64,000 bases of DNA from NCBI GenBank assembly GCA_024614665.1, contig GCA_024614665.1_4861.1. The stretch is one strand, 5' to 3'. Below, piece by piece: positions 2,980 through 18,833 of this stretch. The DNA comes from a phage. The stretch's first letter is position 1; each line of letters begins with the position of its first letter. Under the pieces are notes generated by a model. The model had not been told where the DNA came from, did not search any database, and saw nothing but the letters and a program-made list of their open reading frames with translations. Position numbers and translations under genes: made by a program.

Positions 2980-4833
2980 TTACAGTTTGAAGTTGCTCAG
3001 AGACACGCCCAGACCGAAATCGGAACCGCTTGCAGACAGGCCGTTGCCAGACAGCGTGAAGTCTTCCCCACCGTTGTTGAAGAACAGAGAGGTCGCCATC
3101 GTGTTGTAGGCATTTACACCAGTCATAGACCAGGTGCAGTTGTTACGGACGAAGTCCAGCAGGCATTTACCGAAGATCGGGTTGATAGCCATATCCAGAG
3201 ATTCACCGGTAGCTTGCGGTGCTTTGGATGCGAACAGAGAAGCGGCCAGTTTCAGCATGTAGATACGCTGCTGACGCTCGTTCAGTTCACGGTGGCTGTA
3301 GGACTGTGCGTTCAGGTAGCTATAGACGTCGTTCGCGTTATCACCCAGTTTGGTAACAACGGAAATCAGGTCCATATCCTGGAAGCTGCGTTTCTGTGCA
3401 GTACCGGTGTAAACACCGGAAACAGTCGGTACGGCTGCTTTCACGATGTGGCTGCAATGGATGGTACCATTGAAGGCATCGCCCAGCTGTGCTTTCAGTG
3501 CAGAAGCAAATACTGCAGTGAAGCTGGTCGCTGCAACAACTTCGCCGTTCTGATCACGCGGGGACATGGAATTCAGAATAGCGAGCAGCTGTTTCAGAGA
3601 GTTGTCGTAACCGACCGCAATTTCAGACAGCATAGTAGACAGACCACCCAGGCCGTTACCGGCACGATGGCTAACTACCAGTGCTGCTTCACGCGGTGCG
3701 AACATATCCAGGCAACCTTCGATAGCTTCACGGCTACCGTCGATTTTGGATACATCAGGACGAGCGTCAGCACCCCAGGACAGGTATTCTGCCACACGGG
3801 AGAACTTGCGATCTTGTTTGTTCAGGCGTTTCACAAACAGGTCACGCCAGCCACCGATTGCCGCGATTTCTGCAAATGCAGCCAGCAGCAGCAGTTGACG
3901 TTCATACGGTGCCATTGCACCTTCAGTTTGAGAATCGACCAGACTTACTACGATTTCAGCCTGCAGCTGTTTCAGGTCGTAGACGCCGTTAACGACAGGT
4001 TTCTGACCGGTGAAACGCATATTGACGAAACCGGTACCGGATACACGCGGATACACCTGTACCTGATTGGTGTCCAGCAGAGTCGGAGTGGCATCGGTTA
4101 CGTTGCTTGGGCTGTGCTCAACGGTGATTGCGAAATCAGCACGCTGTGCGTGGCCGTTAGCATCCACAACCGCGCCATCTTCCAGCGGCATTACTGAGGC
4201 CTGATAACGGTCATGCTTACGCAGGTTCAGTGTACCCAGGTAGCCTGCGATACGACCGAAGATACCCATCATCATCTGACCCATCAGGGTACGTGCCCAC
4301 TCAGCATCCAGAACTTTACCCAGGTCTGGTACGGAGTTGATGATCATGAAGTTCGCATTGGTCAGACCATGCGCTTCCATGATGTTTTTCTGTACTACTG
4401 CCAGCACGTCTTTGTTGAACAGTTCAGTGATGGTGTAGTAGTCTTCCTGGCCGTTGTTGGTAGTTTCTTTCAGACGCAGAGACTGACCGCGTTCAAAGAA
4501 GATGATACCGTACAGCCAGTGGCCCTGCCATTGGCCTGCGACGTACGCCGCGGAACCCATTTCGTTACCCACGCCGACGATGGTGCCCCAGCGGAATGCG
4601 TTGAGGTATTCGTTGCTTTTCTTCAGCTCATCCAGGAGGTTGGTGAAGTGCATTGCATAAGTGCTGATGTTGCGGATGCCAAATGCGTTATCGAATTGGC
4701 TGACAGTAGAAGTACCCGGCACAGCAGTTTGCACTTTTACAGTCTCGTTGCCCAGACCGCCCAGTGGTGCGGTGTCTTGAGTCTGAGTGTTGTTCTGCTG
4801 AGCGTTGTTGTTAGAGTCAACGATTTTTACCAT
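2980..4833 (-). CDS. 617-aa protein with strong codon bias; candidate major structural or phage-nucleus shell protein (function unassigned)
   Basis: Long ORF with markedly host-optimal codon choice; sits directly upstream of the RNAP beta-prime gene; the long antisense ORFs across it are typical of highly biased genes. Confidence 0.6.
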   Translation of the reverse strand: MVKIVDSNNNAQQNNTQTQDTAPLGGLGNETVKVQTAVPGTSTVSQFDNAFGIRNISTYAMHFTNLLDELKKSNEYLNAFRWGTIVGVGNEMGSAAYVAGQWQGHWLYGIIFFERGQSLRLKETTNNGQEDYYTITELFNKDVLAVVQKNIMEAHGLTNANFMIINSVPDLGKVLDAEWARTLMGQMMMGIFGRIAGYLGTLNLRKHDRYQASVMPLEDGAVVDANGHAQRADFAITVEHSPSNVTDATPTLLDTNQVQVYPRVSGTGFVNMRFTGQKPVVNGVYDLKQLQAEIVVSLVDSQTEGAMAPYERQLLLLAAFAEIAAIGGWRDLFVKRLNKQDRKFSRVAEYLSWGADARPDVSKIDGSREAIEGCLDMFAPREAALVVSHRAGNGLGGLSTMLSEIAVGYDNSLKQLLAILNSMSPRDQNGEVVAATSFTAVFASALKAQLGDAFNGTIHCSHIVKAAVPTVSGVYTGTAQKRSFQDMDLISVVTKLGDNANDVYSYLNAQSYSHRELNERQQRIYMLKLAASLFASKAPQATGESLDMAINPIFGKCLLDFVRNNCTWSMTGVNAYNTMATSLFFNNGGEDFTLSGNGLSASGSDFGLGVSLSNFKL

Positions 4834-5018
4834 TTTAAATATTCCTTAATAGTGATTGCAATCATAGTTCGGTTCGCAGAGATAATATCTGCCTGTAATT
4901 TCATGGAATGCAAGTATGCCGTCGCTTACTTACAAGGCACATAGTCCAGACATTTCTCAGGAACTGTCACATAGATAATATCAATCTGAGATATTTTTGA
5001 CTGTGACTGACTTCCTAT

Positions 5019-6778: not shown

Positions 6779-9058
6779 TTACTCCTCCGCTTCTTCCCCA
6801 TCTTCTTCCTCTCCATCACGTTCAGATTTCTTAACGTACTCACCACTACCTAATTCTTCCTTGACGGAATCTACAGACTCACCGTAGTAATCCGAAAGCA
6901 GACGAGTTCTGTTCTTGTCCATCATGAACACACCCAGACATTCCAGAATGTGATAGTAAGGTTCTACTGTGGAGAATGCGCTTCGACGTGTGTCTGCAGC
7001 ATCAATCAGCTCCGGCGGAATACCGAAGTTTTCCACCAGGAACTCTGGCAGTATCAGAGTGCGATAGGTACGATAGTTGTTTTCTTCGAACCACCGTGTT
7101 GCGGTGGTCTTAATCATCGGGTCTTTAATGTTTTCCAGCCACTCTTTAACGGCTGTTTTGTTCTCCAGGTTTACCGGAAGTTTCACGGCGTCATAAGGCG
7201 GTTCGTCCAGGTAGCCGTACTTCGGTCCAAAGATAGCGTTGTACATGCGGTGGTAATGGTAACTCTTTTCATCATCTTCAGAGTACGCACTACGGTCTTT
7301 GACGTTGGTTGTTTTCAGGTAGCCTGCTTTACCAGCGCGAATAGAATCCACCACAACGTGCTCAATTGCAGCAACCTTTTCCAGCAGAGGCAGAATCTTA
7401 ATCTTGTCACCACGTGCCACGATCTCACAGAGTTCTTTAATCGTGCGTTTGAACTCTTTCATGACCACCGGAGGAATGTTCGACGTACGTAAAGACACGC
7501 CCTTAACTTCTAACTCAGGGTCAGACTTCAACTGCCCTTCCTGGCCAGTGATGATGGAGAAATAGTGTTTTGCTTTCGTGGTTAACGCAAAGGAGTCGAA
7601 CTTAAATTCGTTCTTCATTGCGTACAAAAACAGACGCTCTTTCGCCACACCGATATTCGCCGACATACTCGCCATCAGATGACGTAAGTGCTGGGTTGCG
7701 ATATAAATCATCGCATCCGATACGCGCGTAGCTTCACGACCGTAATGTTGACCGGTATACCACTGCGCCCACCACTGTGCAGTCATCATCGTGGAGTCGG
7801 TATCAGATACCACGCCAACACGACGAACCACGTCAGGCATCCTGGCAATGTTGATTGGCAGGTTTTTGGTGGTCAGGATATTACGAATCAAGCACGCGTA
7901 CTTACCGATGGTTTTCTGCAGATACACAGCTGAGCGAATCAGCTCTTTGTATTTTTCCTGCTTATCCCACGGTTCCGCTTTGTTCGTGTTTTCGTCTTTG
8001 AGTTTAACGTCAGAGAACGACTTACCTAATGGCACGATATCAGTACGGAACTGCGAGATAATGATCTGCATGTCACCGTCGATAGAGCGCTCAGCAGCAT
8101 CCCAATCAGTGATCTCGTCTTCCATCTCCTCGGCAATCAGCGCACCGATAAATCCACGCATGAATTCATCGTTATATTTCGCCAGGTGGTAGAAGTCACC
8201 CATGTAGACAAACGCTGCACGTACCAGCGGGCTACAATTACCGACGTAGTGACGAATGAACTCCACCCCTTCCTCGTTACGGAAGTAAAACTCTGCAGAG
8301 TACATAACCACTTCCATAACCTCGTCCACAGTTGGGTAGTGGAGGTTATAGAGTTCCATACACTTCTTGAACTCCGCAAAGTTAGTCAGTGTACCGATAG
8401 AGAGTAGGTGGTCGATGACACGAGACGGCGTGTCGTAGTGACGATTACCGCCCAGTAGTCGTTCGTTGCCCGCATTACCGAATGATGTAGCTGTACGGCA
8501 GGTTGACGTCAATACAGAGTGTGAAGACTGGTTAAAGATTACCGTGTACGGTGATGAGAATGCACCCGACATCCCGTTGTTCAACGTCTTAACAGCGTTC
8601 TGTTCGTTCTTTTTGTTAATACGTAAAACTTCGTTTCCTGCAGCACCGGCTGCATACATCTCTTTCTTAACCACCGCACGCTTACGCACGTTCTCTGCCG
8701 TAAATTCAGCAAGCTTAGAACGCTTGACGTGTTCCGGCAAATAGAAAGTCAACGACGGTGCAGAAATGATCTGCTTATCAATCACTGTACGGAACAGTTT
8801 ATCTACCGTGGTGTATTTTTCTTCGCGATCGCCGGTCTTTTGATTGCGCACCCACATCTTACACACGGGGAATTCGTGTACTAACTCACCACCAGGTTGG
8901 AACATTTCTTCGACCTGCTGTCGACAGAACTCCAAAGAATATTTCCCGTTGGTGACGGTATGAATGTAGAGCGCCAGTTGTTCGTAGTACGCATCGATAA
9001 CGTCAATGTCGCGATGATACTCGTCTTGACTAAGACGAAATGGTGAATTGTAGTCCAC
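6779..9058 (-). CDS. large protein (759 aa); possible divergent RNAP beta-prime C-terminal-like module; acidic C-terminal tail
   Basis: Weak resemblance only: VGVVSDTDSTMM...QWYTGQHYGREATRVSDAMIYIATQHLRHL versus the beta-prime segment around the bridge helix ([29 protein letters not shown]); genomic context with beta-prime N module. Confidence 0.5.
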   Translation of the reverse strand: MDYNSPFRLSQDEYHRDIDVIDAYYEQLALYIHTVTNGKYSLEFCRQQVEEMFQPGGELVHEFPVCKMWVRNQKTGDREEKYTTVDKLFRTVIDKQIISAPSLTFYLPEHVKRSKLAEFTAENVRKRAVVKKEMYAAGAAGNEVLRINKKNEQNAVKTLNNGMSGAFSSPYTVIFNQSSHSVLTSTCRTATSFGNAGNERLLGGNRHYDTPSRVIDHLLSIGTLTNFAEFKKCMELYNLHYPTVDEVMEVVMYSAEFYFRNEEGVEFIRHYVGNCSPLVRAAFVYMGDFYHLAKYNDEFMRGFIGALIAEEMEDEITDWDAAERSIDGDMQIIISQFRTDIVPLGKSFSDVKLKDENTNKAEPWDKQEKYKELIRSAVYLQKTIGKYACLIRNILTTKNLPINIARMPDVVRRVGVVSDTDSTMMTAQWWAQWYTGQHYGREATRVSDAMIYIATQHLRHLMASMSANIGVAKERLFLYAMKNEFKFDSFALTTKAKHYFSIITGQEGQLKSDPELEVKGVSLRTSNIPPVVMKEFKRTIKELCEIVARGDKIKILPLLEKVAAIEHVVVDSIRAGKAGYLKTTNVKDRSAYSEDDEKSYHYHRMYNAIFGPKYGYLDEPPYDAVKLPVNLENKTAVKEWLENIKDPMIKTTATRWFEENNYRTYRTLILPEFLVENFGIPPELIDAADTRRSAFSTVEPYYHILECLGVFMMDKNRTRLLSDYYGESVDSVKEELGSGEYVKKSERDGEEEDGEEAEE

Positions 9059-9102
9059 GTCTGGCCCCTTGGTTTTTACTCAGCTATAAGACTTGCGGGA
9101 TA

Positions 9103-9142
9103 CGTGAAAAAAGAAAAAAAATAACCCACTCCGAAGAGTGGG
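9103..9142 (-). terminator. rho-independent terminator
   Basis: Minus strand hairpin CCCACTC-TTCG-GAGTGGG then T-run; follows stop of 9149..9559. Confidence 0.55.
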
Positions 9143-9148
9143 CTTACT

Positions 9149-9559
9149 TTAACCGGCAATACTCTCAACGATTTCAAAATCGACATCATTGAAACCGTTG
9201 GCAGCCAGGGCGCGCTTAAGGTCGTCAATCTCCTGTTTGTTATCCAGGGTGACGGTAAAGCGCACTTTCGTGTTTTCGATAATCTGAACATCACGAATCC
9301 AGGCATCAGCAGCGACTTTGGGTTTGCCATCAACACCTTTAAAAATCAGATACGTGTATTTGTTCACGTTATCTTCTGGCTGAGAAACAATGGAAGAGTA
9401 GATATTCTTCTGCTCCGCCATCACATCCATATAGCTTTTGGCCATTTCATAGCCAACGCCGGTTGCCAGAATAATTACACGCGTCTCTTGCCCTTTCAAA
9501 GGGGTGTCGTAAACAATGTTAACTTTTTGCCCAGCGACCAGTGTGCGTAAATCGAACAT
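9149..9559 (-). CDS. hypothetical protein (136 aa)
   Basis: ORF track; tightly packed same-strand array. Confidence 0.5.
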   Translation of the reverse strand: MFDLRTLVAGQKVNIVYDTPLKGQETRVIILATGVGYEMAKSYMDVMAEQKNIYSSIVSQPEDNVNKYTYLIFKGVDGKPKVAADAWIRDVQIIENTKVRFTVTLDNKQEIDDLKRALAANGFNDVDFEIVESIAG

Positions 9560-10158
9560 TATTCCTCCTCAGGAACATCAATAAGCAGCCTCATATCCAA
9601 AGCATTGGTTAACGGTGTCTTCGGGAAGTCCACCTTCAGAACCAACGTACGGATAGCGCCATTATGCGCCTCTAAGAACATCTTCACCGGCTCAACATAA
9701 TGCGCCATAACTGCCTCCGTTACGGCGGTCGCCATTAGATCCAACGTATAGTGCTTGAGCGTGGCCCAGTGTGAGCTGTCTTGCTCTTTGTACATCAACG
9801 CTAAATCTAACAATGGTGTCAGCCCGTTAAAATGTGACTCAGTGCTGGCTTCCATTGCAACATTAAACTTCCACCGACGGTACTCGTCAGTCAGTAACGT
9901 AAAGAAGTCGTGCAAGAACGTAAGGTCGGTGCGAGCCAACATGCAACGAAACTCGTACGTGTAGCTGGTCAGCGTTTCACGTATAAGTTCGTGCATCTCG
10001 TCCTGGTCCAATTCTTTTACAGGTATCTCCACGGTGATACGCGGTAGGCGGACTACGGTGTCAACCACCAAATCCAAAAACCGCATACCGTCCGGAAGAT
10101 ACCCCACGACCCCCAAGTCCACATTAATCAAGTGGTTGGCGATCACCTTGTAGATCAT
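9559..10158 (-). CDS. hypothetical protein (199 aa)
   Basis: ORF track; start/stop overlap with neighbour. Confidence 0.5.
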   Translation of the reverse strand: MIYKVIANHLINVDLGVVGYLPDGMRFLDLVVDTVVRLPRITVEIPVKELDQDEMHELIRETLTSYTYEFRCMLARTDLTFLHDFFTLLTDEYRRWKFNVAMEASTESHFNGLTPLLDLALMYKEQDSSHWATLKHYTLDLMATAVTEAVMAHYVEPVKMFLEAHNGAIRTLVLKVDFPKTPLTNALDMRLLIDVPEEE

Positions 10159-10167
10159 TCGTACTCC

Positions 10168-10599
10168 TTAACATTCAACACAGATGAGTGCGTTGCCAAT
10201 TTCATTCATAAGGAGTGAAACCTTTGTCTTTTTTGCTCCGTCTTCTGGAGTCAAGCCAGCCATGCCCCACACACGTTCTATCACGGAAAGGATTTCATAG
10301 AACCGAACTTCATCCTTAATCCCACTGCTCATGTTGTAGCAGTTTAGAGGCAGTACCTTTTCAGTACCCCACATCCCGCGCAACTGTTCCAGTATCAACG
10401 CAGGGTCTGGGGGAATAAAAGTAAGAAAGTTCTCACCCTTACCTAGCCCATTAACAATAGAACGTACCGTTAATTCGGCGTAACTGGCCAGAAACAAATA
10501 AGCGACAGCGGGCTCGATCTCGCTAGTATCAGCAATCTCGGCCCGTGCCAACAACGACTCATATTTGAAGACTTCGCCTATGGTCATGTACAGTTTCAT
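10168..10599 (-). CDS. hypothetical protein (143 aa)
   Basis: ORF track; 4-nt overlap with upstream gene. Confidence 0.5.
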   Translation of the reverse strand: MKLYMTIGEVFKYESLLARAEIADTSEIEPAVAYLFLASYAELTVRSIVNGLGKGENFLTFIPPDPALILEQLRGMWGTEKVLPLNCYNMSSGIKDEVRFYEILSVIERVWGMAGLTPEDGAKKTKVSLLMNEIGNALICVEC

Positions 10600-11084
10600 T
10601 CGCAGATTAACACCACATCGTTAAAACTATCACCTACATACGTTTGATATCGCCCCGGATACAGCGACTCTATCAGTCCAGCAAAACCAGTTAAGTTTGT
10701 TAACTCTTCGACCAGCAAACTTACTGCAGCGCCGAAGGCTGCTTGATGTTGTTCGGACGAACCTTGTGCTGCCAGAAACGTCGTATCGACGGACGTTTCC
10801 TTAGCGAACTGGTCAACGGACAGACCATCGGTCACCAGCTCCCAATTGCCCAGAGGTTCAAGCGTGTCTTCCTGTAACAAATCAACCATCGTCGAAGGGT
10901 CACGAGTTTTCACACCGATGATATACGCAAACGCAAAACGTTGATAAAAATCACGTATCTGTGTTTCATCAATCTCCAGGTTACTGGCTTCCAGTACACG
11001 CAATGCCGCTTCACGAACATGCTCGTAAAACCGAGTCGCGCTATATTGGTTCGCAATATCCGCCACATCAAACAGAACGCTCAT
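10596..11084 (-). CDS. hypothetical protein (162 aa)
   Basis: ORF track; 4-nt overlaps both sides. Confidence 0.5.
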   Translation of the reverse strand: MSVLFDVADIANQYSATRFYEHVREAALRVLEASNLEIDETQIRDFYQRFAFAYIIGVKTRDPSTMVDLLQEDTLEPLGNWELVTDGLSVDQFAKETSVDTTFLAAQGSSEQHQAAFGAAVSLLVEELTNLTGFAGLIESLYPGRYQTYVGDSFNDVVLICE

Positions 11085-11590
11085 ACACGACCTCCGAGAT
11101 TACCGATAAGCAAATCGATAACAGGCAGAAGTTGTGGGGTGATTCGCTCGTACGCTTCCTGGCTGGCAAACTGTGGGAATTTATCACCACCATTATAGTC
11201 CAGTAAGAATTCGACATCCGCCGGATTATGCATTGTGTATTGTGCACCGACCCAACGACCGTAGTGAGTAAACCAATAAGGAGACTGCGCTACGGCAGTC
11301 ATATACGCTCGGCCGATGTTTTGAATTGCAGTGCCGTAGGTGATTACTTGCTCATTTTCCAGCACAACGCCGTGTGCATTCAGTGTACGAGAAACAAACC
11401 CAAAGGTGTTGTTCATCATAAACTTTAACTCACTACCAATGGTTCCACGTTCCACGAAGCTCATGGCGGTATTGATTATCGAGTTCAAATCGTCATTCAC
11501 TTCGCGGAGCACATCGTTTGGCGAAAACTCCGTTAACGGCCCAGCCAATAACTGATAGCCGGGGATATAAAAATGAGATCGCTCAATCAT
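11081..11590 (-). CDS. hypothetical protein (169 aa)
   Basis: ORF track; compact operon. Confidence 0.5.
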   Translation of the reverse strand: MIERSHFYIPGYQLLAGPLTEFSPNDVLREVNDDLNSIINTAMSFVERGTIGSELKFMMNNTFGFVSRTLNAHGVVLENEQVITYGTAIQNIGRAYMTAVAQSPYWFTHYGRWVGAQYTMHNPADVEFLLDYNGGDKFPQFASQEAYERITPQLLPVIDLLIGNLGGRV

Positions 11591-11990
11591 TGTAAGTAAC
11601 CCCTGTAGTCAACATTTTCCAAACACCGTCTCCTACATGCCAGAGGAGAAAGTCGGATTGTGGTAAATAAGTCATGTCCTCGTCGATTGCTTGCCAGATG
11701 CAATCGGTGTCCCGTATCAACAACTCAAATCGACAAAGAGCCCAATATTTTGCCGATGTGGTTGGAGTAATGATTGGGTTATCGTGAACATACTCCATAA
11801 AGAACTGGCGTATCATGCTATCGATAACGCCATATTTTTTCCGCAGAACATGCAACCGAACAATTTGCTCGATATAGTCGTCAAGCTCTACCGCAGCATC
11901 CTGGTAATCGATGCCGAGATTCTCTTTGACGAGAGCGGTGAGTCGGCAAGTCAATCGCACGAACTCAGTATAAACCGTCATCATAGACAT
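11583..11990 (-). CDS. hypothetical protein (135 aa)
   Basis: ORF track; compact operon. Confidence 0.5.
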   Translation of the reverse strand: MSMMTVYTEFVRLTCRLTALVKENLGIDYQDAAVELDDYIEQIVRLHVLRKKYGVIDSMIRQFFMEYVHDNPIITPTTSAKYWALCRFELLIRDTDCIWQAIDEDMTYLPQSDFLLWHVGDGVWKMLTTGVTYND

Positions 11991-12273
11991 CTGTTACCTT
12001 ACGTGGAATGAAACGGAGAATTCTGTCTGCCTGATTATAATGATACCGATACCCTTTCGGAGGAATGCCCATTTCCTCACAGATAGCACGATGAACGTGT
12101 GACGCGATGGTGTGGATTTCCCGCGAATGACTTCTGGGACGATAACACCTAACAATCAGTGAGACTGTTTCTGTGTCCCACGCACCGTGTTCTGTAAATG
12201 TCGGAATCATGTATTCGAGCATACAGAGAATGATATGCTTCAACCCCGTGTTAACATCATACATGCTGAACAT
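11965..12273 (-). CDS. hypothetical protein (about 102 aa; start moved to internal ATG)
   Basis: ORF track ORF 11965..12432 overlaps the upstream gene by 146 nt; internal ATG at 12273 removes the overlap. Confidence 0.4.
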   Translation of the reverse strand: MFSMYDVNTGLKHIILCMLEYMIPTFTEHGAWDTETVSLIVRCYRPRSHSREIHTIASHVHRAICEEMGIPPKGYRYHYNQADRILRFIPRKVTDVYDDGLY

Positions 12274-12286
12274 GATGTCGCTGGGG

Positions 12287-12850
12287 TCATTCAATATCCT
12301 GACGTATGCCGTCGAGGCAATGTGATCGATCAGTACCAGACGGACGATATCGTTTGTTTGGGAAGCATTGGCGGTAGTGGATGAATCTGATGTCTTCTCC
12401 AATTTGTAACTCCAGAGATTGCACCTGCCCACGACGGGTTATGTGTGGTTCCAGTTTAATCGTCGCATAACGATTAAACGGGTGTTTGGCGGCCTTCACA
12501 GCATTCTCCACAAGCGCATGGATACTGTCCAGGAAACTGTTGTAACAGTCTTCGAATGCCAATCCGATAAGATATTCGGTAGAACGTAAAATCGCTACGG
12601 TCTCCTTCGTCTTATTAACCGGAGTACCCAAACCGCCGCTGGAAACGTGTGTACGTTCCACAGGAACTGTTTTCGGTGGAAGTATGATCTGGTCAGCCAC
12701 CAACATCATCGTGAGATTAAAAGCGTCAGTATAAGGTTCCAGCAAAGGTTCCATACGTGCATTAGGCATTTCCGGAACGGAGTAAAAGATATCTTCGAGC
12801 GCAGTGTGTAACAGTTGTACAGTTAACATCTCGCGTTCTTTTTGGCTCAT
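12287..12850 (-). CDS. hypothetical protein (about 187 aa; start moved to internal ATG)
   Basis: Internal ATG at 12850..12848 forms an ATGA overlap with the stop of the 12847..13167 gene (translational coupling). Confidence 0.45.
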   Translation of the reverse strand: MSQKEREMLTVQLLHTALEDIFYSVPEMPNARMEPLLEPYTDAFNLTMMLVADQIILPPKTVPVERTHVSSGGLGTPVNKTKETVAILRSTEYLIGLAFEDCYNSFLDSIHALVENAVKAAKHPFNRYATIKLEPHITRRGQVQSLELQIGEDIRFIHYRQCFPNKRYRPSGTDRSHCLDGIRQDIE

Positions 12851-13167
12851 CCGCAGAGCGGTAGCGTACTGGGAAGCATCGACAGGCCCCCAGAAGCTAG
12901 AATGAACCGCAGCTGGTTCGAGGTATATTCTGACCACGTTTGCACAACTCCATTTTTGTAATGAAAGGGATAGCTATGGTTTCGGCCCAACGCCGAAATA
13001 ACAAACCACGCTTCCGTGCCAAAATAACTTTCGGCAATGCGTATCCACTCGCGTGGAAACTCATGCGTGCCGGGATAAATGACTTCTTGTATCGCGCACA
13101 GTAACGTGTCCGCAGGCACAATCTGTTCATTTGTCCCTGGAGAGAAATTAAAGAACATGCGCGTCAT
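12847..13167 (-). CDS. hypothetical protein (106 aa)
   Basis: ORF track. Confidence 0.4.
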   Translation of the reverse strand: MTRMFFNFSPGTNEQIVPADTLLCAIQEVIYPGTHEFPREWIRIAESYFGTEAWFVISALGRNHSYPFHYKNGVVQTWSEYTSNQLRFILASGGLSMLPSTLPLCG

Positions 13168-13330
13168 CGAGAAATGCTCCTTAAGGATAATTCACGAAGA
13201 TAATATCTATGCAAAATTTCTTCGAGTATGGTGCGCACATAAAGGTCGTAAAACGTATTTTAATGTCAGGTAATGGGATAGCATTACCCGATGGTATGAG
13301 TTGTCCTACGAGCTTCATAGGAGCCTTAGA

Positions 13331-14143
13331 ATGAATGTTATCGACTACTGCCTGCGTAAAATCAGACAGCATATCCCTGCCCCGATTCTACAGGCGGCTT
13401 TTGTTCCAGAAAACCTCAAGTTACTGGGAATTGCAAGCTCTGTAGATAACGAAATTCAACAACGCGTTATTCGTGAAATTCTGGTCCCTGAAATCTCCAG
13501 AATGGGGCAGTATCAAGAAGTAGATTTGCAAGGTGTTCCTTGGGATAACGACACGCAAGATTATTTCAGTCGCGTGTACTATCTCGACGACATCAAAACA
13601 GGCGGTCGCCCTATTCTGGACGCCCATATCTCTGTAACACCTGTTGCCGGGCAGGCGTACACCATGCCACCTGCCGGTTCGTATCTGGACGGTGCAACCT
13701 CCGGTGTACTGGCGTCCACTCAACAAGTGGTTGATAGCCAATCGGCGATGCCACGTATCGCCTCGCCAGAAGTTGAGGTGCTCGGTCCGAATACCATTCG
13801 TATCAAAGACCCAGGCATGTTCGTTTACTCTACCAAACTCGTGGTGAAGTACGAACTGTCCCAGGAGATGAACGAAATCAAACCAGCATTCTATCCGGTT
13901 GTAGGTGAGCTGGCAGTCATGGCTGTTAAGCAATATATCTACAACACCATGATCTTCGACATGGACTCTGGTAAACTGGAAAACGGTATGGAGTTCGGTG
14001 CCTTCAGAAACGTTATTGAAGGTTACTCGGACGCAGGTCAAATGTTCGAAGACACCTTGCCGAAAATGCAGCGTTGCCTGGTCCACAACGACAACATCGG
14101 AAACCGTTGGAACTACATGAACGGTGGACGCTTCAAGTCGTAA
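13331..14143 (+). CDS. hypothetical protein (270 aa), opposite orientation to flanking block
   Basis: ORF track starts at a TTG at 13301; in-frame ATG at 13331 has AGGAG 8 nt upstream; terminator directly after stop; the antisense ORF 13421..14146 has atypical composition. Confidence 0.5.
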   Translation: MNVIDYCLRKIRQHIPAPILQAAFVPENLKLLGIASSVDNEIQQRVIREILVPEISRMGQYQEVDLQGVPWDNDTQDYFSRVYYLDDIKTGGRPILDAHISVTPVAGQAYTMPPAGSYLDGATSGVLASTQQVVDSQSAMPRIASPEVEVLGPNTIRIKDPGMFVYSTKLVVKYELSQEMNEIKPAFYPVVGELAVMAVKQYIYNTMIFDMDSGKLENGMEFGAFRNVIEGYSDAGQMFEDTLPKMQRCLVHNDNIGNRWNYMNGGRFKS

Positions 14144-14200
14144 CAAAAAAAAAAGAAAGATTCCGTACCTCTACGCAAGTAGAGGTACTTCTTCTTTTTT
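14144..14200. terminator. bidirectional rho-independent terminator
   Basis: Hairpin GTACCTCTAC-GCAA-GTAGAGGTAC (14165..14188) with A-run upstream and T-run downstream; between convergent genes. Confidence 0.65.
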
Positions 14201-14588
14201 AACCGGCAACACCCAGCACATCCTTAAGATGATGGGTAATACCTGACGTCCACGCCTCACCTTCACGCACGATTTCCGGTTGAGCGTTAACCAGTCGGCG
14301 GAGAGAAATTGTGTGTTCCGCTAAACCCGCTACGGGAAACACAGGTGGAACGGTGGCTTGTTTGACATAATCGACGACATCGTTGAAGCCTTCGTTAGAA
14401 GACCAATCAATTTCTACACCGTCGCAGACATCTAATTGACGCGTGTTATTCTCTTCATCGGGGTGGAAAGTAAAACCCCATTGAATTGTATCCAGGAGAC
14501 CACGGTCAAGTTCGTTGACCACTTTAATTTTCTTGAGGGTATCCGGATGCGCCATAATCACGTCCAGCGGACGCAGTTTGTTTTTCAT
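14199..14588 (-). CDS. hypothetical protein (129 aa)
   Basis: ORF track. Confidence 0.5.
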   Translation of the reverse strand: MKNKLRPLDVIMAHPDTLKKIKVVNELDRGLLDTIQWGFTFHPDEENNTRQLDVCDGVEIDWSSNEGFNDVVDYVKQATVPPVFPVAGLAEHTISLRRLVNAQPEIVREGEAWTSGITHHLKDVLGVAG

Positions 14589-15157: not shown

Positions 15158-16105
15158 CTAATCAAACTGAAAATCGTACACGCTAAGCCATTGCTCACGT
15201 GGAAACAAATTATAAACTTCCTCAGGGATGTGGAGTACCAACCATCTAGCTCCGTTACCGCCAACGTACCAGGAAGCGTACGGATATATAGAATCCTTCG
15301 GTGGTGCTAACGGAGAAGGTAATTGCTGAGCCCCATAAACGATGCTACCGACCATCTCGCCGTCCGGTAGGACTGCCGCAACCATCCAATTCGCGGGATA
15401 ATAGGTTCCAGCATCGGGAGTCGCTAAATAACGCAAGTATAAGTTATCTGGCTCAAACCGCTTGCGTAGAGTTAAGAATAAACACAACTCATACGGTTCG
15501 ATGTTCAATCTGGTGTTCGGGAGACTGTGCTCTTTATACCAGTTTGCATAACCTGCCTGCAGTGCTCTGATTGCCAGGATTGGTTTGTCTATATCCACAG
15601 GTAGCTGGAGTGGTGTAACGTTCAAATCTGCGGCGGTTGGAAACATTACCGGTTCAGGATTGATGAGCTGGTTATACGCTTCCCGTAAACGATTCATCTT
15701 GATGCGTAATGCACCGTTCGTTAACACCAGCCTACGTCCATGGTTTTCATCTGCCGCACGTTCCGTAAAAAGTGCATCGCCGAAGTGGCGAACAAACTCA
15801 ATGCTTAGGAACTTGGTGTGGTACGTAGGTGATGTGTACTCAATGAACTCATTCTGTCTGAATCCAAAATGGTGGAGCAATTCGCCGTTGGTCCATTTGA
15901 ACACAAATCGGAATTCGAAGTTCTTGTACTGTAGCGCATCTTTTACAGCACGTATCGCTTCCCAAGCGTCGAAGTTCGTTCTGTATAACGAACCAAAAGG
16001 GAAGAATCTGCGAGGTAAGAAAGGTCGAATGCGGGTTGCTTCTGCGAGGCTGAAGCCATCCTGGTTTAATCCTTCGATAGCGCTAGGATTACTTGGTCTG
16101 TACAT
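15158..16105 (-). CDS. hypothetical protein (315 aa)
   Basis: ORF track. Confidence 0.55.
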   Translation of the reverse strand: MYRPSNPSAIEGLNQDGFSLAEATRIRPFLPRRFFPFGSLYRTNFDAWEAIRAVKDALQYKNFEFRFVFKWTNGELLHHFGFRQNEFIEYTSPTYHTKFLSIEFVRHFGDALFTERAADENHGRRLVLTNGALRIKMNRLREAYNQLINPEPVMFPTAADLNVTPLQLPVDIDKPILAIRALQAGYANWYKEHSLPNTRLNIEPYELCLFLTLRKRFEPDNLYLRYLATPDAGTYYPANWMVAAVLPDGEMVGSIVYGAQQLPSPLAPPKDSIYPYASWYVGGNGARWLVLHIPEEVYNLFPREQWLSVYDFQFD

Positions 16106-16195
16106 GATGCATACCTTTTATAGTCGAGTTGGGAGAATTCAGATGAGGATTTCTCATCTCACTTAGGTAATATCTATCTGTGGATATTTGGAATG

Positions 16196-18757: not shown

Positions 18758-18833
18758 TGGCGGGGGCACGAGGTTTCGAACCTCGAACCTTCGGTTTTGG
18801 AGACCGGTGCGCTACCAATTGCGCCATACCCCC
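18758..18833 (-). tRNA. tRNA-Trp (anticodon CCA), 76 nt, CCA encoded
   Basis: Hand-folded cloverleaf on minus strand: acceptor GGGGGTA/TGCCCCC, D-arm GCGC-AATTGGTA-GCGC, anticodon arm CCGGT-CUCCAAA-ACCGA (as in E. coli tRNA-Trp except a C27-A43 mismatch), T-arm CGAGG-TTCGAAA-CCTCG, discriminator G, CCA. Confidence 0.8.

Follow-up and report, generated by a model that had tools for sequence, protein, structure and literature searches.

The small-gene array between the portal adaptor and DNA polymerase genes of an SPN3US-like jumbo phage and its positional relation to the Imp2/Imp4 slot of phiKZ

The small-gene slot upstream of the DNA polymerase gene

How nucleus-forming phages select the proteins that are imported is an open question in the field. 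In phage phiKZ, orf47 (imp2) is needed for the import of the RecA-like protein Nlp1, with Imp2 itself being imported, and orf48 (imp4) is needed for the import of host TopA; both proteins act with the core importer Imp1 (Kokontis et al.). A 2026 preprint calls Imp2 and Imp4 cargo-specific adaptors, and a transposon screen has found no disruptive insertions in either gene. Adaptors of this kind (Imp2, Imp4, Imp5 and Imp7) are so far known only from Pseudomonas phages. Here we have analysed a stretch of phage DNA of 64,000 nucleotides (nt), contig GCA_024614665.1_4861.1, hereafter the window, in which nine small minus-strand genes at 9149–13167 lie in the genome slot corresponding to that of imp2 and imp4. 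Judging from its sequence, the window comes from a Salmonella jumbo phage of the SPN3US type (Seoulvirus, within the nucleus-forming Chimalliviridae): a megablast search with 9000–13400 has matched 36 phage records, including SaP7 and SPN3US at 98.9% and 98.0% identity over the full length. The nine open reading frames (ORFs) are SPN3US gp9–gp17, and in every matched record all of them are annotated as 'hypothetical protein'.

The genes can thus be found in existing public records, and comparative papers have mapped the region. What is new here is the reassignment of gp17 from a 'polymerase-associated SH3' protein to a baseplate protein, a motif that is a candidate early promoter in the SPN3US group, and an explicit positional link of gp9–gp16 to the Imp2/Imp4 slot, to which the structure model of gp13 may add a weak hint.

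With the polymerase as the anchor, we have gathered loci by tblastn against phage records and by a pattern scan of IMG/VR. The slot runs from an adaptor gene on the opposite strand through small co-directional genes to the SH3DP gene and the DNA polymerase gene, and for the 61 loci with both anchors the median interval is 4.1 kb with 8 genes (range 6–14). The published core genes include phiKZ gp42, gp49 and gp50 (cg68, cg1 and cg2, respectively) and none of the genes between them (Prichard et al.). Data on phage Goslar were left out, since its genes are numbered differently from paper to paper. Phages whose polymerase is 44–51% identical carry an array of equal gene number and sizes. In addition, HHalign finds counterparts of gp13 (92%) and gp10 (89%) at the same ordinal positions in intermediate chimalliviruses. 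This pattern indicates that the array has come by vertical descent with extreme divergence, and not by replacement. When the eight window families were compared with 264 array families, gp12 (94%) and gp15 (71%) were linked only to the divergent Phobos/CR5-type orthologs in the clade, and no window family was linked to phiKZ-type families.

In phiKZ the slot is occupied by gp43–gp48, and Imp2 and Imp4 are the only slot genes with functional data. The phiKZ array is like that of the window in its slot, in its 7–8 small, packed, co-directional genes, and in having the genes of chimallin and of the beta' subunit of the non-virion RNA polymerase (nvRNAP) further downstream. It is also like gp9–gp16 in protein sizes (about 100–360 amino acids, aa), non-virion status and lineage-restricted sequence. 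The two arrays differ in that no sequence homology is detectable between them, with a weak fold hint for gp13 only. In position, gp9–gp16 correspond to the Imp2 family: they lie between the adaptor and SH3DP genes, in the slot that precedes the DNA polymerase gene.

The linkage to the polymerase gene, which is seen in every chimallivirus examined, could also be explained if these genes encoded replication or recombination accessory proteins working with the adjacent DNA polymerase, e.g., divergent substitutes of the clamp, the clamp loader or the single-stranded DNA-binding protein. The translational coupling described below, which suggests a complex, would suit this explanation too, but we consider it decidedly improbable. 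The same logic underlies the Pfam name 'SH3 domain associated with phage DNA polymerases'.

Within the phiKZ slot itself, we have observed a conserved 142-aa ORF between gp42 and gp43 (NC_004629, 35899–36327; 15900–16328 on the plus strand of locus L003 in our set), which is unannotated in RefSeq. Six loci have a relative of it at the same position, and the annotation of phage BRkr lists it as RVBP21_3070.

Operon anatomy and the baseplate protein gp17

The nine genes, the terminator and the two flanking genes are given below with their coordinates in the window.

12847–13167, minus strand: gp9, 106 aa, the first gene, with an AAGGAG ribosome-binding site; phrog_9874 (unknown function)
12287–12850, minus strand: gp10, 187 aa with start ATG 12850; phrog_8359
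11965–12273, minus strand: gp11, at least 102 aa; the start may be further upstream (TTG 12402 or GTG 12432)
11583–11990, minus strand: gp12, 135 aa
11081–11590, minus strand: gp13, 169 aa, the best conserved among gp9–gp16
10596–11084, minus strand: gp14, 162 aa, isoelectric point (pI) 4.2, with ATGA coupling to gp13
10168–10599, minus strand: gp15, 143 aa, with ATGA coupling to gp14
9559–10158, minus strand: gp16, 199 aa
9149–9559, minus strand: gp17, 136 aa, 15.3 kDa; Pfam SH3DP, by homology a baseplate ring (HR1) protein
9113–9144, minus strand: predicted intrinsic terminator 3' of gp17, at the end of the operon and before the DNA polymerase gene gp18
6779–9058, minus strand: gp18 (flank), family-B DNA polymerase, homolog of phiKZ gp50; the next gene downstream
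13301–14143, plus strand: gp8 (flank), transcribed divergently; homologous to phiKZ gp42, which is the dodecameric portal adaptor

A preliminary description of the array, made from the sequence alone, had spoken of nine ORFs of 100–200 aa on one strand, joined by 0–4-nt ATGA overlaps and bounded by terminators. Nine co-directional ORFs indeed fill 9149–13167 of the minus strand, with almost no non-coding DNA between them. Their sizes are about 100–199 aa, while two of the original ORF calls (216 and 155 aa) were over-extended. The 4-nt ATGA overlap is found at gp13/gp14, at gp14/gp15 and probably at gp9/gp10 (ATG 12850), and the remaining junctions are varied. Actually, gp16/gp17 is a TAATG junction with a 1-nt overlap and a strong ribosome-binding site, gp12/gp13 overlap by 8 nt and gp11/gp12 by 17–26 nt, and gp15/gp16 are separated by a 9-nt gap, with the stop codon lying within a TAAGGAG ribosome-binding site. 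For gp10/gp11, the gap is 13 nt with the gp11 start at ATG 12273, and the overlap is 116–146 nt with TTG 12402 or GTG 12432; as annotated in relatives, this overlap is 35–83 nt.

The start codons of SPN3US gp10 and gp11 look mis-annotated. The SPN3US annotation starts gp10 at ATG 12829 (180 aa), and from the sequence context the start is probably ATG 12850, which forms ATGA with the gp9 stop codon as in pEa_SNUABM_29. In relatives, gp11 is annotated with 118–135 aa and overlaps the 3' end of gp10. At the upstream gp11 start that the relatives use, this phage has no ATG, and the candidates are TTG 12402 and GTG 12432; the PHROG match of the long gp11 ORF starts at residue 33.

As for the terminators, the expectation holds at the downstream end, where the minus-strand stem-loop at 9144–9123 has a 9-bp stem, a UUCG loop and a U-tract (free energy −16.1 kcal/mol, z-score −4.8). 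The upstream end is instead a 133-nt divergent promoter region in common with gp8, and the nearest hairpin upstream of the array (14165–14188) sits past gp8. Because no terminator is predicted within the array, gp17 may be co-transcribed with gp9–gp16. Overall, the region appears as one transcription-unit-like block, consisting of an AT-rich motif, gp9–gp16, gp17 and a strong terminator, and we consider this anatomy highly probable.

On the upstream side, gp8 is a lone inverted gene between two minus-strand operons, and its product is retained in tailless SPN3US heads according to virion mass spectrometry. The hairpin at 14165–14188 is GC-rich. It sits where gp8 and gp7 (14199–14588, minus strand) converge, between their ends, and may terminate transcription in both directions.

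The preliminary description had also stated that none of the ORFs has recognisable motifs, which is wrong for gp17. This protein matches Pfam PF20287 (SH3DP) clearly and over its full length, with an E-value of 3.2e-35 and 120.9 bits against a cut-off of 25. SPN3US gp17, to which the window protein is identical, is a PSI-BLAST homolog of phiKZ gp49 (Thomas et al. 2016). The pairwise identity of the two is too low for BLAST, so that blastp of gp17 against phiKZ gp49 gives no match, but both belong to one iterative hidden Markov model (HMM) family that is present in 85 of the loci examined. Like phiKZ gp49 and 201phi2-1 gp81, gp17 combines this Pfam family with a site beside the polymerase gene and a tail-dependent virion status, the latter known from SPN3US: gp17 gave 19–21 spectra in tailed virions and 0 in tailless gp64- particles. 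In the solved structure PDB 9xqs, phiKZ gp49 is built into the baseplate, where twelve gp49 dimers make up the hexagonal ring HR1 (2026 phiKZ structural atlas); the ring dimers are joined by handshake beta-sheets.

From its homology and virion status, gp17 is a baseplate hexagonal-ring protein. The full name of PF20287, 'SH3 fold domain associated with phage DNA polymerases', reflects the gene neighbourhood only and is misleading for the gp49/gp17 family. Virion incorporation had been named in the preliminary description as an observation that would speak against its view of the array, and this is what is found for gp17, which belongs to the virion, disappears when the tail is missing and has a phiKZ homolog that forms the baseplate ring. 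A second solved relative, a 'SH3 fold domain-containing protein', is found in PDB 11lx and 36za (28 chains).

A candidate early promoter and the conservation of gp9–gp16

Upstream of gp9 we have found an AT-rich motif, AGATATTATCT. When the regions upstream of gp9 orthologs are aligned across the clade, the block cATAGATATTATCtt is conserved at a distance of about 30 nt from the start codon. The site and the other copies of the motif that precede genes in the window are the following.

13190–13215, minus strand: candidate early promoter of the virion RNA polymerase (vRNAP) type, with the core ATAGATATTATC at 13199–13210, about 32 nt before the gp9 ATG
4881–4889 and 4974–4982, minus strand: motif copies upstream of the chimallin gene gp22 (ChmA, 2980–4833, minus strand)
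16166–16174, minus strand: motif copy upstream of gp5 (15158–16105, minus strand)

Allowing up to 2 mismatches, the motif has 12 matches in the window while 3.4 are expected, and none of 100 shuffled sequences reaches 12. The core GATATTATC is near-palindromic, so it is found on the opposite strand too with one mismatch. The extended consensus AGATATTAYCTnnGYGA has 4 instances in the window, all intergenic and all pointing at a gene. For a genome-wide scan, the SPN3US genome was assembled from five pieces; it contains 16 extended sites, all of them co-oriented with the downstream gene and 15 of them intergenic. The genes that follow are gp5, gp9, gp22 (2 sites), gp30, gp31, gp34, gp55, gp66, gp76 (2 sites), gp99, gp125, gp180, gp209 and gp221. 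Among them, gp30 is a homolog of the nvRNAP subunit phiKZ gp68, and gp34 is annotated as an RNA polymerase beta subunit. The virion list contains not one of these 14 first genes, an outcome with a chance of ~0.005 given that about one third of the genes are virion genes.

According to a review on jumbo-phage RNA polymerases, early operons carry a roughly 10-nt AT-rich conserved motif near −10 that is read by the virion RNA polymerase, while middle and late promoters are not findable bioinformatically in such phages (PMC7598289). Chimallin and nvRNAP are early products (2026 preprint). Because the motif also precedes the chimallin and nvRNAP genes, we infer that 13199–13210 may serve the virion RNA polymerase, which is injected with the DNA, as an early promoter. 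A scan for sigma-70 promoters returned fewer sites than in shuffled sequence and is uninformative for this phage. The operon is like the chimallivirus early operons of the virion RNA polymerase in its ~10-nt AT-rich upstream motif and its non-virion first gene, and it differs from them in ending with a structural gene.

In SPN3US, outside the part covered by the window, one copy of the motif (JN641803 25231–25240) falls within the 3' end of gp30, 266 nt upstream of gp31. This gene is the positional counterpart of Imp1/PicA, with gp30 and gp32 matching relatives of phiKZ gp68 and gp70, respectively; phmmer gives no match between gp31 and 201phi2-1 gp125.

Mass spectrometry of SPN3US virions has listed about 86 proteins, among which the products of gp9–gp16 are missing, and the motif suggests that they are non-structural and probably early. 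The structural genes on both sides, i.e., gp8 (portal adaptor) and gp17 (baseplate ring), could point to another role, in the morphogenesis of the neck or the baseplate, as chaperones or scaffolds that do not stay in the virion. Chaperones would be compatible with the absence from virions, and the TAATG coupling of gp16 and gp17 with its strong ribosome-binding site fits as well. On the other hand, the motif is common to the ChmA and nvRNAP genes and stands upstream of no virion gene, and the phiKZ slot genes of known function are import factors, not assembly factors. We regard a morphogenesis role as very improbable.

At the sequence level, gp9–gp16 are conserved as genes while their proteins diverge fast. 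Compared with SPN3US, they show 62 synonymous and 17 non-synonymous codon differences; we have used this comparison because the synonymous rate (dS) is saturated in most between-genus comparisons. The ratios of non-synonymous to synonymous rates (dN/dS) against the Erwinia phage pEa_SNUABM_29 are 0.09–0.23. Each gene has same-order orthologs in pEa_SNUABM_29, phiEaH2, Machina, Wellington, Phobos and CR5, those of gp9 being 31–77% identical, and the order 9-10-11-12-13-14-15-16 is kept in 29 SPN3US-clade loci with only occasional extra ORFs. The synonymous excess, the low dN/dS and the constant order indicate that gp9–gp17 are real genes, and by these sequence comparisons gp9–gp16 are under purifying selection. 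The mutation tables of Thomas 2016 list none in gp8–gp18 and are uninformative on essentiality.

With regard to divergence, the polymerase is 70% identical in Phobos and CR5, while gp9–gp16 are 22–38% identical or below blastp detection. The non-synonymous rate (dN) against pEa_SNUABM_29 is 0.13–0.33 for gp9–gp16 and 0.06 for the polymerase. That is, gp9–gp16 diverge 2–5 times faster than the polymerase. In iterative HMM searches over the ORFs of 93 loci, the families of gp9–gp16 are confined to 22–29 SPN3US-clade loci. Among 5.8 billion proteins there are 18 clusters for gp16 and 12 for gp13, and with the gp13 profile HMMER has found 19 proteins in all of the 1.84 billion representatives. The proteins are soluble, lack hydrophobic segments and have a pI of 4.2–6.2 (7.05 for gp11). 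They match only PHROG families of unknown function, and nothing significant is found in Pfam, NCBIfam or PADLOC. PADLOC gives no match at all, and the sole NCBIfam match, of gp13 to a GrpE model, is sub-threshold (12.7 bits against a cut-off of 176).

The preliminary description proposed host-takeover or anti-defence functions for the array. Its early, non-structural character is supported indirectly for gp9–gp16, but there is no positive evidence for the specific function. In such a cassette, every early small protein would act as an inhibitor, either of some process in the host or of an immune system. The early-type promoter and the non-virion status would agree with this, as would the finding that the proteins are small, acidic, fast-evolving and without known relatives, in families limited to one clade among 1.84–5.8 billion proteins. 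In packing, small size, lack of annotation and probably early expression, the array also resembles the 'monkey-wrench' early clusters of T4-like and other large phages. However, the T4-like clusters vary in gene content between relatives, and counter-defence islands usually vary between close relatives, whereas this array is fixed in content and order. Presence/absence variation is almost nil: whether the host is Salmonella, Erwinia, Cronobacter or E. coli, the phages have the eight genes in one order with nearly constant gene content, and this speaks against a counter-defence tuned to particular hosts. Purifying selection in close comparisons is a further point on this side, and the nucleus already gives chimalliviruses much protection at the DNA level (Kokontis et al.). 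No characterised inhibitor was matched in Pfam, NCBIfam, PADLOC or PHROG, where no dedicated anti-defence search was made. Overall, we think a host-takeover or anti-defence cassette unlikely.

A possible role in protein import

The explanation we favour combines the operon with roles like those of import adaptors, and we hold it tentatively, at somewhat less than even confidence for the whole. Under this explanation, gp9–gp16 would be made before or during phage nucleus formation from the early promoter of the virion RNA polymerase, and at least some of them would be early phage-internal accessory factors of nucleus-based replication, analogous to Imp2 and Imp4. Concretely, an adaptor would bind one particular cargo and hand it over to the Imp1/PicA importer, in parallel to phiKZ, where Imp2 (gp47) and Imp4 (gp48) license Nlp1 and TopA for Imp1/PicA-dependent import. 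The fast divergence would come from co-evolving protein–protein interfaces, and the tight translational coupling would yield balanced protein amounts.

This analogy starts from the slot, which is conserved family-wide and whose sole characterised occupants are such adaptors. In addition, the set of genes stays the same from one host genus to another, and fast divergence under purifying selection fits co-evolving interfaces. From these considerations, an import-adaptor function for at least some of gp9–gp16 appears possible, although doubtful.

Remote-homology and structure checks, which the preliminary description had suggested, have identified gp17, and for gp9–gp16 the sequence searches are negative while the gp13 model has weak matches to relatives of Imp2. 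Structure models were made with AlphaFold2 (AF2) for gp13 and gp16, the two proteins with a buildable alignment. The gp13 model has a predicted local distance difference test score (pLDDT) of 86.9 and a predicted template-modelling score (pTM) of 0.85, with the five models ranging from 41 to 87, and consists of an N-terminal strand, a helical bundle, a beta-hairpin and a C-terminal helix. In Foldseek against BFVD, it matches its orthologs (template-modelling score, TM, 0.9), and then an unnamed 145-aa viral protein (E-value 3e-3, TM 0.60/0.69). The lower matches are weak and enriched in chimallivirus proteins, several of which are small array genes. The top 12 include 201phi2-1 gp79 (E-value 0.15), Phabio gp64 (0.23) and PhiPA3 gp44 (0.71). 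For the first two, membership in the Imp2 family is confirmed by their annotation, their position and phmmer, and PhiPA3 gp44 is an Imp2-family protein as well (Kokontis et al.). Having three Imp2-family members in the top 12 of a predicted model is suggestive but weak.

The gp16 model (pLDDT 80.6, pTM 0.75) shows a strand, a helical bundle and a C-terminal beta-hairpin. By eye, a helical bundle with a C-terminal hairpin seems to recur in many members of the array. The idea of a tandem-paralog array that this raises is unsupported by HHalign and by the two models: pairwise blastp and HHalign find no similarity among the array proteins, and the gp13 model compared with a gp16 ortholog gives a TM of ~0.2.

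Several observations weigh against the adaptor-like explanation. Neither blastp nor iterative HMMs detect homology between gp9–gp16 and phiKZ gp43–gp48. For the Imp2 family (phiKZ gp47, PhiPA3 gp44 and 201phi2-1 gp79), blastp, phmmer and iterative HMMs are likewise negative, and when each window family is compared by HHalign with a profile of 8 Imp2 members, the probability is at most 0.8%. For gp16 and the family of phiKZ gp48 (Imp4), the HHalign probability is 2%, so that sequence homology to Imp4 was not found, and in Foldseek against BFVD the gp16 model matches its own orthologs only (TM 0.78–0.86). A gp13 profile expanded with 12 metagenomic relatives finds nothing outside the gp13 family, and each of the matches between gp13 and Imp2 relatives is individually insignificant (E-value 0.15–0.71, TM 0.25–0.36). 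Membership of gp9–gp16 in the Imp2 or Imp4 families is thus not established. In addition, the conservation of Imp2 and Imp4 is limited to phages of Pseudomonas according to Kokontis et al. The position in the slot does not prove function, and most of the phiKZ slot genes (gp43–46) are themselves uncharacterised. The operon also includes the structural gene gp17 without a predicted promoter of its own, which is odd for a purely early unit.

A more far-reaching form of the adaptor-like explanation takes the slot as a family-wide collinear cassette of ~8 hyper-diverging genes that would form a cargo-specific import layer, with gp13 as a remote structural homolog of Imp2. We consider this rather improbable. 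If it were true, Imp2-like adaptors would be universal in Chimalliviridae and not specific to Pseudomonas phages, and position and fold would outlast sequence. If the SPN3US slot encodes the same layer, it offers eight defined candidates that can be tested in a genetically tractable Salmonella phage. The present result is mainly a tidier annotation.

Some minor observations concern the window and its relatives. The sole transfer RNA (tRNA) that ARAGORN reports in the window is a tRNA-Trp (anticodon CCA) at 18758–18833 on the minus strand; the SPN3US record lists a 'tRNA-OTHER' nearby, for which ARAGORN makes no call in the window. 'Proteus phage 7' (MT679221) is 97.7% identical over the region, and its host label, Proteus mirabilis, is unusual for so near a relative. 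Several of the SPFM phage records (LR535902–LR535921) match the region in up to 40 scrambled pieces, and the SPFM versions of gp13 and gp16 are truncated or mosaic (P0006–P0010 and P0026–P0030), which looks like an artefact of assembly or sequence quality. Identical or nearly identical copies of gp16 and gp13 also occur among proteins deposited under the names 'Salmonella enterica' or 'E. coli' (P0001, P0002 and P0025, with 126 member sequences in the P0001 cluster). As these copies lie on contigs of ~241 kb, they should represent whole phage genomes within bacterial assemblies, arising via a carrier state or contamination.

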